Assembly (NCBI GenBank): GCA_041658985.1
Contig: JBAZZC010000001.1
Coordinates: 65,813 to 129,812, forward strand
DNA length: 64,000 nucleotides
Reading direction: 5' to 3'
Origin: Minisyncoccota bacterium
GTDB taxonomy: Bacteria > Patescibacteriota > Minisyncoccia > Phycocordibacterales > DATDWN01
In this document: positions 60,416-64,000 of the stretch, piece by piece
Layout of the letters: every line of letters starts with the position of its first letter
Numbering within the stretch: position 1 is the stretch's first letter
The notes under the pieces: generated by a model
Databases searched by the model: none
Told to the model about the DNA's origin: nothing
The model's input: only the letters and a program-made list of their open reading frames with translations
Program-made: the position numbers and the translations under genes

Positions 60416-61381
60416 ATGTTTATTGATGAATTAACTGTTAATATCTGGGCTGGAAAGGGGGGCGATGGGGTGGTTTTGTGGAGACATGAGAAGGGTATAG
60501 ACCACGCTGGGCCCGGGGGTGGAGACGGTGGAAAGGGCGGGGGTGTCTACCTGAAAGGAGTCCAAGACATTGGGCGTCTTTCCGAGTATCGGTTTGTAAA
60601 AGACTTCAAGGCAGAGAATGGTGGTGCCGGACAAGGAAACTGTATGCACGGTAAGGCAGGGGAAGACATAACCATTGAACTTCCAATCGGTAGTGTCGTT
60701 ACCAACACTCAAACTGGAGAATTTATTGAGGTTTTAAATGCCGAGCCGATATTTTTTCTAAAGGGTGGTTGGGGTGGTTTTGGTAACCATCATTTTAAAA
60801 GTTCGGTCAATATGCGACCAAGAGAATCAACCCCAGGAAAACCGGGCCAGGGAGGTGAATTTTTTATTGAGCTAAGATTGGTTGTTGATTTGGGTTTAGT
60901 TGGACTTCCAAATGCCGGAAAATCAAGCTTACTTAACAGTTTAACCAGGGCTAAAGCAAAAGTTGGTAATTATATATTTACAACACTCTCACCAAATCTA
61001 GGTGACCTATATGGTTTTGTCATTGCTGACATTCCTGGGCTGATAGAAGGAGCAAATGAAGGAAAAGGCCTTGGACATAAGTTTTTAAAACATATAGTTC
61101 GAACAAAAATGTTACTACATTACATTTCTTGTGAAAATGAAAACCCCCTTGAGACATATAACGTCATTCATGAGGAGTTAAAAAAACACGACCCCACGCT
61201 TCTAGATAAAACGGAAGTCATTTTGTTTACAAAAGAAGATTTGGTTGATGGAGATAAATTGAAATCAAATTTTAAATTATTTAAAAAAACCCATAAACAC
61301 GTTTTTTCTGTGTCTATTATTGACGACAACTCCGTGAAGAAACTAAGTGACGAATTAGTAAAAATTCTCCGAAACTTGTAA
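60416..61381 (+). CDS. obg: GTPase Obg/CgtA
   Basis: Gly-rich Obg fold N-terminus (AGKGGDGVV...GPGGGDGGKGGGVYL), G1 GLPNAGKSSLLN, G3 DIPG. Confidence 0.92.
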   Translation: MFIDELTVNIWAGKGGDGVVLWRHEKGIDHAGPGGGDGGKGGGVYLKGVQDIGRLSEYRFVKDFKAENGGAGQGNCMHGKAGEDITIELPIGSVVTNTQTGEFIEVLNAEPIFFLKGGWGGFGNHHFKSSVNMRPRESTPGKPGQGGEFFIELRLVVDLGLVGLPNAGKSSLLNSLTRAKAKVGNYIFTTLSPNLGDLYGFVIADIPGLIEGANEGKGLGHKFLKHIVRTKMLLHYISCENENPLETYNVIHEELKKHDPTLLDKTEVILFTKEDLVDGDKLKSNFKLFKKTHKHVFSVSIIDDNSVKKLSDELVKILRNL

Positions 61382-61391
61382 TATTAGGAAC

Positions 61392-63338
61392 ATGAGTGAT
61401 TATAAGATGACAATTGGGTTGGAAATACACGCTGAATTAAAAACTAAAAGCAAAATGTTTTGTGGTTGCATAAATTCTCCCGAAGGAAAATCTCCAAATA
61501 TATATATTTGTCCAGTCTGTATGGGTCACCCGGGCACCTTGCCGGTAATTAACAAAGAAGCGGTTAAAAAAGTTCTTCTTGTTGGGACAGCTCTTGGCGG
61601 AGATGTAGCTGATTTTACGGAATTTGACCGAAAAAATTACTTTTATCCTGATATTCCAAAGGGATATCAAATTAGTCAGTATAAAAATCCTCTAGTACAA
61701 GGCGGAACTTTGAACAGAGTGAAAATAACACGGATTCATCTAGAAGAAGACACTGCTCGCTCAACACATGACACACCAGGAGTTAGTTTGGTTGATTATA
61801 ATCGGGCTGGGGTGCCCCTAATGGAGATGGTAACAGAACCAGTTATCCACAACAGCGAAGGAGCGATGAGGTTTGCCAAGGAATTTCAGCTTCTTTTACA
61901 ATATCTTGGTGTGTCCGATGCTAATATGGAAAAAGGGGAGATGCGTGTTGAGGTTAATATTTCTGTTGCGAAGCATCCAGAAACATTAACCTCCGCAGAA
62001 GGTCGCCGAAATGACGCAGAGGGTCGCAGACAGGATACATCCGAGCTTTTATATGAAGACCTCACATACAAAATTCGTGGAATACTGTTTGAGGTAAGAA
62101 AAAGACTGGGTTTGGGGCATAAGGAGCAAATTTATCACAATGCTTTAGAAATAGAGTTTAAGAAAGCTAACTTAAGTTTTGAGAGTAAAAAAAATATTTC
62201 TATATTGTATGAAGGTAAGAGTGTGGGCATATATCAACCGGACTTTATCATTGAGAATCAAATTATTATCGAACTGAAGGCATTACCGGAAATTGCTAGA
62301 CCGCAAACAGAACAACTTTGGTCGTATCTCAAGGGGTGTGAATATAAATTAGCACTACTGGTTAACTACGGTTCAAAGGACCTTGAAATAAAAAGGGTGG
62401 TTTACGATACGGCCAGAGAATCGAAATCCATTCAGCGTTTTTCTGCGTCAGGTCTGCGAGAGTCTGCGGTGCCATTTGGTACAAAAGTAGAAATAAAAAA
62501 TATCAACTCTTTTCGTGCTGTAGGTAAGGCCATTGATTTTGAATTTAATAGGCAGACTGCTCTTTTAGAGAGAGGTGAAAAAGTTGTACAGGAAACCAGG
62601 GGTTGGGATGAAAATAAAGAGTTAACTTTTTCTCAACGACTAAAGGAATCGGCTCACGATTATAGATACTTTGAGGACCCAGATTTGCCGAAAATAATTA
62701 TTTCAGAAATCCCAGAATTTTTACCAGCTGAATTGAAAAAACTTTTAGTTGAACTGCCGGAAGAAAAAAGAAAAAGACTAACAAATGATTTTGGTTTGAA
62801 ATCAGAAGATGTGGAGATGTATGTGGGGGACAGAGAAGTGGGAAAATTTTTTGAAACAGTCGCACAAAGTTTGTTGGAATCTATTCCGCGTTTTTCTGCG
62901 TCTAGTCTGCGAGAGTCTGCGGTGACAACAGCATCTAATTACATCACATCTGACATCGTTGGTCTGTCAAAATCAGTAGGTAAAAATTTTACATTTGGAA
63001 AAATAAACAAGGAGGGTTTTATTGGTTTGATGGTTATGATTGGTAAAGGCGAATTGTCTTCTAGGGGAGCCAAGGATATCTTAAAAATAATGTTTGAAGA
63101 AGGAGGTGACCCAAGTGCATTAGCTAATCAGAAAGGACTAATCCAAAAAAATAATTTATCAGAAATAAAATCTCTGGCGGAAAAAATAATTAGGGAAAAC
63201 CCAAAGGTTGTCGAGGAATATAAAAATGGAAAAGAGTCACTACTTCAGTTTTTTGTAGGGCAAGGAATGAAGGAATCAAAAGGTAGTATTAATCCTGAAC
63301 TGTTTAAAAAAGCTGTTTTAGAGCTATTGACAAAATAA
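61392..63338 (+). CDS. gatB: Asp-tRNA(Asn)/Glu-tRNA(Gln) amidotransferase subunit B, with ~160-aa in-frame insertion
   Basis: TIGLEIHAEL...FCGC...CPVCMGHPGTLP, DYRYFEDPDLP, C-terminal YqeY-like domain; 648 aa vs ~480 typical. Confidence 0.88.
   Translation: MSDYKMTIGLEIHAELKTKSKMFCGCINSPEGKSPNIYICPVCMGHPGTLPVINKEAVKKVLLVGTALGGDVADFTEFDRKNYFYPDIPKGYQISQYKNPLVQGGTLNRVKITRIHLEEDTARSTHDTPGVSLVDYNRAGVPLMEMVTEPVIHNSEGAMRFAKEFQLLLQYLGVSDANMEKGEMRVEVNISVAKHPETLTSAEGRRNDAEGRRQDTSELLYEDLTYKIRGILFEVRKRLGLGHKEQIYHNALEIEFKKANLSFESKKNISILYEGKSVGIYQPDFIIENQIIIELKALPEIARPQTEQLWSYLKGCEYKLALLVNYGSKDLEIKRVVYDTARESKSIQRFSASGLRESAVPFGTKVEIKNINSFRAVGKAIDFEFNRQTALLERGEKVVQETRGWDENKELTFSQRLKESAHDYRYFEDPDLPKIIISEIPEFLPAELKKLLVELPEEKRKRLTNDFGLKSEDVEMYVGDREVGKFFETVAQSLLESIPRFSASSLRESAVTTASNYITSDIVGLSKSVGKNFTFGKINKEGFIGLMVMIGKGELSSRGAKDILKIMFEEGGDPSALANQKGLIQKNNLSEIKSLAEKIIRENPKVVEEYKNGKESLLQFFVGQGMKESKGSINPELFKKAVLELLTK
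61984..62473 (+). other. in-frame insertion in gatB encoding a GxxExxY-family PD-(D/E)XK nuclease-like domain, ending in a 36-bp repeat
   Basis: KIRGILFEVRKRLGLGHKEQIYHNALEIEFKKANLSFESKKNISILYEGKSVGIYQPDFIIENQIIIELKAL fits GxxExxY consensus (PD..E.K); insert lies between conserved GatB segments VEVNISV and GTKVEIKNINSF. Confidence 0.6.
62436..62471 (+). repeat. 36-bp direct repeat (copy 1; copy 2 at 62889-62924, 34/36 identical), both in-frame in gatB
   Basis: cgtttttctgcgtcaggtctgcgagagtctgcggtg vs cgtttttctgcgtctagtctgcgagagtctgcggtg; encode RFSASGLRESAV / RFSASSLRESAV. Confidence 0.8.
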
Positions 63339-63349
63339 GTTTTTAATTT

Positions 63350-63598
63350 CTATTGGGTGTTCTCTAGGTGCCTTACAATCAGTTTTCTGACCTCCTTTTT
63401 TGGTGTCCTTGGCACACCCGTTCCAGTTTCAATGTCCATAATCACTTTCTCCAAATCTTCTATTTTATAGACCCTATAATTATTCATTGGGTGGCGGTGA
63501 GCCTTTAGCTTTCCATTCTTATCCCAATTACGCAAAGTTAAAGGAGAGACGTTTAAAATCTTTGAAGCTTGTCTAATTGTTATATATTGATTAGCCAT
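63350..63598 (-). CDS. excisionase/MerR-like helix-turn-helix DNA-binding protein
   Basis: ITIRQASKILNVSPLTLRNWDKNGKLKAHRHPMNNYRVY resembles Xis/MerR-type HTH. Confidence 0.5.
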   Translation of the reverse strand: MANQYITIRQASKILNVSPLTLRNWDKNGKLKAHRHPMNNYRVYKIEDLEKVIMDIETGTGVPRTPKKEVRKLIVRHLENTQ

Positions 63599-64000
63599 AC
63601 TGTTTCTACCATTATAAACCTTACTAATGGTTACTAATCATTATATAAAGTTTATAATTCATTATCAACCTCTGGTGTTCATAACTATTAGAAGTAAAAA
63701 AGTACAAAACACACATTTTACTTCTAAAATTTCTAATTTTTAATTTCTAATTTCTAAATATGGGCATAAATAAAAAATGTTTGATATTAACCATGTTTAC
63801 TCGTTGTAAAAACTTCTTTACGTTGTGTTTTTAGGTTTGTTTAGAAATTGAAAATTGGGAATTAAAAATTGCCTGTATATTCGGGTTTCTCGGCTATCCG
63901 AGATTGCCGAGATGTTTTTATTTATCCACACATTTTTGCTGTTTTGGTGTGTGTCCTAATTGTATAATTTCATCAATGGGTTCTGAACTATTTTTTGAAA

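Follow-up and report, generated by a model that had tools for sequence, protein, structure and literature searches.

A GxxExxY nuclease cassette lies in frame within gatB and other housekeeping genes of Patescibacteria

Results

The gatB gene of the window encodes an internal nuclease-like domain

We analysed a 64-kb stretch of a Minisyncoccota bacterium contig (JBAZZC010000001.1; hereafter the window), in which the gatB gene is enlarged by an in-frame insert that codes for a predicted nuclease domain of the GxxExxY family set between two repeat arms (Table 1). The host gene is gatB: its product contains both GatB_N, split by the insert (aa 7-196 and a second stretch), and GatB_Yqey (aa 511-646) in Pfam, the NCBIfam equivalog hidden Markov models (HMMs) score above their curated cutoffs (NF004012, 533.6 bits, cutoff 338; TIGR00133, 487 bits, cutoff 314.8), and the obg-gatB-merR synteny is common to the window and the orthologous loci. 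An earlier reading made from the letters of the window alone (the sequence-only reading) had judged this GatB about 170 aa too long and had placed the extra block after the conserved VEVNISV segment. Both points hold: the protein has 648 aa against 476 aa in its nearest insert-free orthologue (P0060), and alignment to GatB orthologues places the insert after VEVNISV (aa 186-192) and before GTKVEIKN (aa 363-370). Compared with an empty orthologous gatB (L087; 77% nt identity, same synteny), the window gene shows a net insertion of 492 nt, or 164 codons, at this site (site 1), and a net gain of 27 nt at the place of a second repeat copy (site 2). GC content is 0.355 in the nuclease core, 0.37 in the gatB host and 0.54-0.61 in the arms. 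The public record of the identical protein (P0055; NCBI, JGI) is named 'MAG: GxxExxY protein [Candidatus Paceibacterota bacterium]' (MAG, metagenome-assembled genome); the GatB name is overridden by the inserted domain, which implies a risk of mis-annotation for all hosts of the cassette.

The sole Pfam domain of the insert is PDDEXK_3 (PF13366) at aa 223-336 (E = 5.9e-31; 107.7 bits, cutoff 22; profile positions 2-117 of 117). The full TIGR04256 (GxxExxY) model is matched as well (profile positions 1-116 of 116; E = 2.6e-33; 114.8 bits, cutoff 35), as expected from the GxxExxY block noted in the sequence-only reading. The signature motifs of the core are present as G242-H-K-E245-Q-I-Y248, P283-D284 and E294-L-K296, and the core itself lacks both a start and a stop codon in frame. 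In AlphaFold2 (AF2) models, it is predicted to adopt the PD-(D/E)XK fold, with a restriction-endonuclease-like alpha-beta-beta-beta-alpha-beta arrangement; the catalytic domain of I-Bth0305I is among its fold matches, and a sequence search with the nuclease retrieved no solved homologue. The proposed PD-(D/E)XK fold thus agrees with Pfam, NCBIfam, the AF2 model and the fold matches. The predicted local distance difference test score (pLDDT) of the core is 93.5 when modelled alone and 80-92 within GatB, and falls to ~30 in the arm-encoded peptides (aa 196-218 and 340-363), which are predicted to be disordered.

None of the catalytic residues E, D, E and K varies among 18 diverse embedded copies, and the ratio of nonsynonymous to synonymous substitutions (dN/dS) between pairs of cores has a median of 0.23, with dS largely saturated; it follows that selection maintains the domain. 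Given hosts as unlike as SecA and glycosyltransferases, such selection fits a benefit to the element rather than to the host. Nuclease activity and its substrates are predicted here from the conserved residues and the fold, and a survey of the PD-(D/E)XK superfamily gives the function of PDDEXK_3 as 'Unknown' (PMC3424549). The insert had no PADLOC defence-system match at E <= 0.01, its PHROGs match was marginal ('endonuclease', E = 0.0015), and its viral relatives were limited to 6 weak matches at 40-45% identity.

Complementary hexamer arms and mirrored host codons bound the insert

Table 1. Features of the gatB cassette in the window
Feature	Position	Strand	Comment
gatB ORF (open reading frame), host of cassette	61392..63338	+	648 aa; GatB equivalog HMMs E 4e-160
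H1, host codons (E V N I S V), outer half of left junction palindrome, GAGGTTAATATTTCTG	61950..61965	+	16 nt, 94% complementary
Left hairpin loop, 12 nt	61966-61977	+	between H1 and H1'
H1', reverse complement of H1, left end of insert, CAGAAACATTAACCTC	61978..61993	+	inverted duplication of target flank
Left arm	61994..62030	+	CGCAGA at 61994, 62015, 62025; degenerate CGCCGA at 62004; encodes predicted disordered linker SAEGRRNDAEGRRQ
GxxExxY / PDDEXK_3 nuclease core (predicted)	62046..62420	+	aa 219-343, 125 codons
Right arm	62432..62468	+	TCAGCG at 62432; TCTGCG at 62442, 62453, 62463; complementary to left-arm hexamers
Weak right junction hairpin	62469..62482	+	GTGCC (62469-62473), ATTT loop, host GGTAC (62478-62482)
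Solo partial copy of cassette right end	62878..62927	+	TCCGCG + three TCTGCG; 45/50 identical to 62425-62474

The hexamers of both arms are spaced by 10-11 nt and, in the window copy, complementarity between the arms is confined to them, the 4-5-nt spacers not being complementary. The two arms pair with each other in an RNA fold of the region (z = -4.1). Outside the arms, the left junction hairpin formed by H1 and H1' is significant (DNA fold z = -4.19), and no hairpin was found by the same fold at the matching site of the empty gatB orthologue; the counterpart of the weak right stem is a perfect 13-bp stem in a gatB mini-element (L003, see below). In the predicted translation, the junctions are spanned by NISVAKHPETLTSAEGR and ESAVPFGTK.

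The sequence-only reading had also reported a 36-bp repeat, 34/36 identical and in frame at both places, and had taken its copies for flanking direct repeats. The repeat itself is confirmed: the 36-mer at 62436-62471, within the right arm, recurs 453 bp downstream at 62889-62924 with 2 mismatches (0 matches in 100 shuffles), the match can be widened to 50 nt with 90% identity (62425-62474 and 62878-62927), and both copies lie in gatB frame 0, where they read RFSASGLRESAV and RFSASSLRESAV. They do not flank the insert, however, because both lie downstream of the nuclease domain; its true flanks are the inverted arms (61993-62036 and 62426-62469). The second repeat matches the right end of the cassette outside the hexamers too (AATCyATTC... 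and ...GGTGmCA), has no left arm, hairpin or junction palindrome, and was not found in 24 other aligned GatBs, the nearest filled relative P0056 among them. It replaces part of a variable loop in the C-terminal region, where small insertions are tolerated in other GatBs. The best interpretation is not a target duplication but a recent copy of part of the cassette right end, made through gene conversion or an aborted one-ended event. A search of the 64-kb window for standalone GxxExxY genes or further repeat copies found no other GxxExxY copy and no other arm cluster; the window holds no lepA, recG or leuS.

The same cassette occupies many unrelated host genes

All sequence data behind the survey of the cassette come from MAGs. 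The GTDB was scanned with one genome per species, which gave 346 confirmed matches, and the locus analyses use the best 80 of these 346; GatB was compared with the 24 other aligned proteins, identities being computed on the host part only. In 14 other GatBs, whose host parts are 57-78% identical to that of the window copy, the cassette lies in frame at exactly the site that it has in the window gatB; P0056 and P0057 are the nearest filled relatives of the window copy. The closest GatBs of all are empty (P0060, 83.5%; P0061, 82%) and carry a normal 6-residue loop.

That a chimeric contig or mis-joined reads had simply put a GxxExxY gene inside gatB, or that annotation had, is extremely improbable: an identical protein is found in NCBI, JGI and ENA records, on contigs of up to 148.7 kb, and the same in-frame architecture recurs in the 14 other GatBs and in 80 genomic loci from many studies. 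What speaks for such an artefact is the MAG origin of the data, an NCBI name that is just 'GxxExxY protein', and the coincidence of arm repeats with scaffold gaps in L001, L016 and L022; N-gaps at or near arm repeats in these loci and in L021 suggest that the elements tend to break short-read assemblies.

In an exhaustive search of 1.84 billion representatives, the best matches to the insert (47-75% identity) were nearly all internal to larger proteins, and the closest nuclease relatives overall (47-82% identity) likewise sit inside host proteins, not in standalone genes. Pfam identified the hosts of close relatives as LepA/EF4, RecG, LeuRS, another class-I aminoacyl-tRNA synthetase (aaRS), SecA, RtcB and AsnB (asparagine synthase), and also as Wzy (O-antigen ligase) and GT1/GT2 glycosyltransferases; the module is further present within DHFR-like and P-type-ATPase-like proteins. 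The best 80 GTDB loci are mostly titled as Parcubacteria, Paceibacterota or Patescibacteria lineages. By motif, 47 of them are LepA, 22 RecG and 4 LeuRS, to which Pfam adds more LeuRS, SecA, another class-I aaRS and one ORF with two copies. The latter (L066:1876-4461) is an 862-aa ORF with two PDDEXK_3/GxxExxY copies and no further recognisable Pfam domain. Some LeuRS hosts contain other domains besides the GxxExxY cassette, inserted after the editing domain: a NUDIX domain in P0176 and L048, and a serine-hydrolase/alpha-beta-hydrolase domain in L032. Within the LepA of L022, LQPGSGQA/V octapeptide tandem repeats lie downstream of the G-domain, beside a scaffold gap.

A neighbour-joining (NJ) tree of the cores splits the GatB inserts over at least three places, and those of the window, P0056 and P0058 lie nested within a set of LepA inserts. 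LeuRS inserts likewise branch from inside the LepA inserts, and Wzy, SecA and glycosyltransferase inserts lie among the RecG and LepA clades. With LepA inserts from other organisms the window insert shares 74-82% identity, but only ~50-55% with another clade of GatB inserts. This nested, polyphyletic tree and the high LepA identity indicate that the cassette has moved between genes, giving a patchy, host-switching distribution. It could be argued instead that each host gene received one old, now immobile insertion that descended vertically and was repeatedly lost, the palindromes and arms being decaying relics. The mostly saturated dS between copies, the uniformly filled deep GatB clades among the sequences sampled and the partial tracking of host genes by insert clades would agree with this, but we consider it unlikely. 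Besides the closer kinship of the window insert to LepA inserts, filled and empty gatB alleles interleave at shallow depth in a host-only NJ tree, and precise loss would have been needed each time, since empty alleles keep the normal 6-residue loop (SKTEDF; DLNAKR). The nuclease is moreover under purifying selection, and near-perfect palindromes persist and track host codons despite saturated synonymous sites (see below).

The host reading frame runs through the element

The nuclease frame leaves the element and enters the host without a stop in 80/80 loci, element and junctions being stop-free, and it stays open for hundreds of codons on both sides in 76/80. Of the 4 loci that are shorter downstream, 3 end at assembly N-gaps and one (L084) ends at a stop 126 codons on, the host continuing in another frame. 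No other argument for translation through the insert is as strong as this continuity, which removal at the RNA level would not need.

The element was described from its sequence as neither intein nor intron, and Pfam, the junction residues and an Rfam scan concur. An intein was rejected because no Hint/intein Pfam family matched at E <= 0.01, the junction residues are wrong and the insert core is a single PD-(D/E)XK domain; a group I/II intron was rejected because a relaxed Rfam scan gave no match at E <= 1 in 61300-63400 on both strands and the frame is continuous in the 80 loci. With no Hint domain and no junction nucleophiles, the cassette probably stays in the mature protein. A new kind of spliced element, removed either from the mRNA (through the arm-arm helix, with an RNA endonuclease and a ligase such as RtcB) or by protein splicing of an unrecognised chemistry, is quite improbable, a little more so than the ancient insertion weighed above. 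Apart from the frame that passes through the 3' arm into the host and the missing intron and intein signatures, the junctions (AKHPETLTS... and ...ESAVPFG) lack Cys/Ser/Thr and His-Asn, a helix that includes host exons would put any cut inside essential host motifs, and the mismatches of the junction stems (G:T against A:C) show no G:U preference, the numbers being small.

Inverted copies of the host flanks follow each host

In LepA loci, both junctions consist of host codons and their reverse complement inside the insert, and the palindromes measure 10-19 bp in nearly all 47 loci. The left junction of L008, GTCAGGATGATAT|ATCATCCTGAC (V R M I Y | H P D), is a perfect 24-nt palindrome, and its right junction reads ATCAATCAAGTTGAGG-(10 nt)-CCTCAACTTGATTGAT (...INQVEG...ILNLID); L009 has GTCCGCATGCTGTGG-aag-CCACAGCATGCGGAC on the left, and L007 a perfect 18-bp stem on the right. 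RecG loci behave likewise, with CATCGACAACAGGTG pairing with CATCTGTTGTCGATG (encoding HLLSM) in L079, and junction palindromes are also present in LeuRS loci, in L045 and in the GatB loci L003 and L005. Across 77 loci, the best stems beside the core were stronger than those of control windows taken from these host ORFs (Mann-Whitney p = 1.5e-8 left, 4.7e-10 right).

The inverted copy follows the synonymous codon choice of each LepA host. It is the perfect complement of the locus's own host segment in 17/47 LepA loci on the right (12 nt) and in 19/47 on the left (9 nt), against an expectation of ~1-1.6 when host segments are permuted among loci, a count as high as that observed being reached in 0/2000 permutations. 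These 9- and 12-nt cores were used because longer fixed-length segments gave a weak covariation signal only. Empty lepA (L088, VRMSY-DLNAKR-YTLNLID) and empty gatB have no palindrome, and the filled lepA alleles lack the 6-residue loop seen in the empty one. A mini-element with different arms (TTGACC/GGTCAA) occupies the same lepA site, between GITIK and DTPGH, in L089 (LepA P0397), with perfect junction palindromes of 13 and 14 bp, from which it follows that this junction structure is a property of the insertion process and not of one sequence family. Direct target-site duplications were sought around the insert and none were found. The insert does have the terminal inverted repeats of an insertion sequence (IS) or a MITE (miniature inverted-repeat transposable element), but a classical IS or MITE was rejected, as the junction copies are inverted and not direct and the insert encodes no DDE, HUH or serine/tyrosine transposase.

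ORF-less mini-elements and standalone genes share the arms

The gatB site of L003 (3580-3759) holds three CGCAGA, 18 nt and three TCTGCG between both junction palindromes, with no ORF; its 18 nt keep the first codons of the core, so this mini-element arose by internal deletion in situ. The same MAG (GCA_023267045.1) carries a full cassette in lepA (L038), an autonomous/non-autonomous pairing as expected if the nuclease acts in trans. Small arm-like inserts occur in frame in other loops of GatB and LepA. Short in-frame inserts in other GatB loops are seen in P0090, P0092, P0101, P0154, P0122 and P0170 (alignment A1, columns 157-200 and 640-660), with the repeat-derived peptides HADGHQRISADKNQRESA, VIPAEAGIQKALGPRLHGDD and TISTSASISAENLRASAFF, which suggests that GatB has been colonised by palindromic mini-elements of several families.

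Outside Patescibacteria, GxxExxY genes that stand alone, each with an ATG and a stop codon to itself, also lie between inverted repeat arrays: in L090 the arms are CACGGAC/GTCCGTG, and in L142, a contig of 62% GC, the gene is flanked by four CGCAGA and four TCTGCG. A metagenome scan for the arm pattern, used qualitatively only, found the right-arm pattern in at least 119 contigs, many solo matches in GC-rich contigs being possibly due to chance. Among the matches listed, paired arms enclose either GxxExxY or only 40-150 nt (perfect hairpin minis), and no other cargo was found between CGCAGA and TCTGCG arms. The arms of young minis are perfectly complementary. Two such perfect hairpin minis (L128:1940-2180 and L148:3480-3710; metagenome, ~52% GC) have 4-5 CGCAGA and TCTGCG units with spacers that are complementary as well, and are set in tandem repeats (GTAGAGTAATTTCC-like units) outside long ORFs. 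As hexamer array and nuclease form a unit that is conserved across very different genomes, the hexamers are suggested to be putative binding sites of the protein.

These observations bear on whether the domain has been exapted, that is, fixed as a functional addition to GatB (e.g. for RNA/tRNA processing or quality control) and no longer mobile. Its intact catalytic residues under purifying selection, its independent folding on a surface loop and the number of hosts that handle nucleic acids or translation (GatB, LepA, LeuRS, RtcB, RecG) are what such a role would predict. We nevertheless find it unlikely: the same module sits in glycosyltransferases, O-antigen ligase, SecA, AsnB, and DHFR-like and P-type-ATPase-like proteins, it is missing from the closest GatB orthologues, remnants without an ORF are seen at the same gatB site, standalone copies bear the same arms, and the predicted disordered linkers have a peptide sequence set by DNA hexamers read in different frames.

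Sequences downstream of gatB

Directly downstream of gatB and on the opposite strand lies a MerR/HTH_17-type gene (82 aa; window 63350-63598, minus strand), which keeps its place after gatB in all orthologous loci fetched, filled or empty. Short repeats (ttctaaaatttctaatttttaatttctaatttctaaat; gaaattgaaaattgggaattaaaaattg) occur past it in an AT-rich intergenic stretch (window 63690-63770 and 63840-63870).

Discussion

We interpret the gatB insert as a copy of a non-spliced, nuclease-driven selfish cassette with ORF-less derivatives, a reading to which we assign a probability of about 0.72. The sequence-only reading had proposed a domesticated or parasitic mobile module, and it is partly supported: the parasitic alternative agrees with our interpretation, and the domesticated one is unlikely for the reasons given against exaptation.

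The cassette is laid out as inverted upstream host codons, a CGCAGA arm, the 125-codon nuclease, a TCTGCG arm and inverted downstream host codons, and resides in frame in surface loops beside highly conserved motifs of housekeeping genes. Most likely removed from neither RNA nor protein, it would be expressed by read-through translation from the host promoter, ribosome-binding site and start codon, the nuclease being an internal, independently folded domain on two ~23-residue disordered linkers encoded by the arms. Features of a homing element are present, namely an internal nuclease ORF, insertion beside host motifs that are conserved, and close relatives of which some are filled and others empty. 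The nuclease probably acts on hexamer arrays and on empty or structured target DNA; the cassette would spread to unoccupied copies of the same site (homing), with putative cleavage of the empty allele and copying by repair, and occasionally to new genes. Deletion of the ORF leaves hairpin mini-elements.

The mirror duplication of host sequence at the junctions suggests that integration proceeds through hairpin-capped or fold-back target ends, and not through staggered cuts such as ordinary transposons make. In formal terms, the top strand after integration would read H1-H1'-element-H2'-H2. It could arise if both broken target ends became hairpins and were reopened 9-19 nt from the tip or, equivalently, if the target strand formed a duplex with a circular element strand, and this duplex were cut and each end closed on itself, the element strand 5'-H1'...H2'-3' acting as a 'padlock' for the empty site. 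Such integration chemistry by a PD-(D/E)XK enzyme is speculative.

Several points weigh against this interpretation. PD-(D/E)XK enzymes hydrolyse and are not known to make hairpins by transesterification. In the window copy, only the left palindrome is strong, the right junction stem having 5 bp and not being significant, and palindromes could be maintained instead by selection or by gene conversion within the palindrome. The insert and host trees were built quickly by NJ and carry no support values; most pairs of copies have a saturated dS, which does not demonstrate recent movement, so that the distribution could come partly from old insertions plus losses. Two long disordered linkers may also carry a cost in an essential enzyme.

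Among known systems, homing inteins are the closest in habit: they too lie in frame in conserved motifs of essential or housekeeping genes with a nuclease domain inside, are sporadically distributed, have nuclease-less minis and recur at the same site across lineages. The cassette differs from them in that it has no Hint domain or junction nucleophiles, its predicted nuclease is PD-(D/E)XK (GxxExxY) and not LAGLIDADG or HNH, and it bears hexamer-repeat DNA arms and inverted target-flank duplications. PD-(D/E)XK homing endonucleases exist, I-Ssp6803I being one, but they ride in self-splicing group I introns, and the cassette contains no ribozyme.

Other likenesses are to palindromic elements and transposons. 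Rickettsia palindromic elements, which are not known to have an autonomous partner, differ from the minis described here, which share arms and junctions with a full-length, nuclease-coding form; the junctions of the cassette further differ from those of Rickettsia elements and MITEs in being inverted, not direct, target duplications. The ORF-less minis (L003, L089 and those in other GatB/LepA loops) otherwise behave like Rickettsia elements and in-frame bacterial MITEs (reviewed in PMC10969869; for Coxiella, PMC5896051). Systems of repetitive extragenic palindromes (REPs), REPINs and REP-associated tyrosine transposases (RAYTs) share with the cassette a gene between inverted repeat units and many dispersed ORF-less hairpin doublets. 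RAYTs, however, are HUH Y1 transposases and REPs are extragenic, whereas the cassette enzyme is a predicted PD-(D/E)XK nuclease and its copies in the candidate phyla radiation are intragenic and probably translated. Palindromic flank copies are also the hallmark of hairpin-capped ends opened off-centre in hAT/RAG transposition and in V(D)J P-nucleotides, and hAT ends carry subterminal hexamer arrays. There, the palindromes are short excision footprints and the enzyme is an RNase-H-fold DDE transposase; here they measure 9-19 bp beside a resident element whose sole encoded enzyme is a predicted PD-(D/E)XK nuclease.

The nearest parallel in expression is an insertion in the methylase of phage ShiLan which is read through in frame, evolves in a homing-like manner, is predicted to loop out of the host protein and could be identified as neither intron nor intein (PMC11855218). 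Its HNH endonuclease is described there as lying in an alternative frame with its own start and stop, whereas the cassette nuclease is in the host frame without either; the abstract mentions no terminal hexamer arms or junction palindromes, and the hosts are phages and not Patescibacteria chromosomes (PMC11855218).

No prior description of the cassette family was found in the literature searched (full text). We tentatively extend the interpretation, at less than even odds, to the family as a whole: GxxExxY proteins may be the enzymes of an unrecognised class of mobile DNA that integrates by a hairpin or fold-back route with inverted target duplications, the Patescibacteria copies being translated, never-spliced 'guest domains' in essential genes.

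Selfish elements survive in essential genes through removal from the RNA (introns) or from the protein (inteins). The cassette family seems to have found a third solution, being kept in frame and translated on floppy linkers off a surface loop; if true, introns and inteins would be joined by another route through which selfish DNA can occupy a conserved gene without harm. The mirror-image junctions, being specific to each host, speak for an integration chemistry of which we found no description for any bacterial element. The system lends itself to direct tests, since its parts are a single small nuclease, a hexamer array that is defined, and sites defined in both the empty and the filled state. 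It would explain the many oddly long housekeeping proteins of Patescibacteria that are mis-named in databases, such as a GatB labelled 'GxxExxY protein', and would give the large GxxExxY/PDDEXK_3 family, with its thousands of members, a first biological role.

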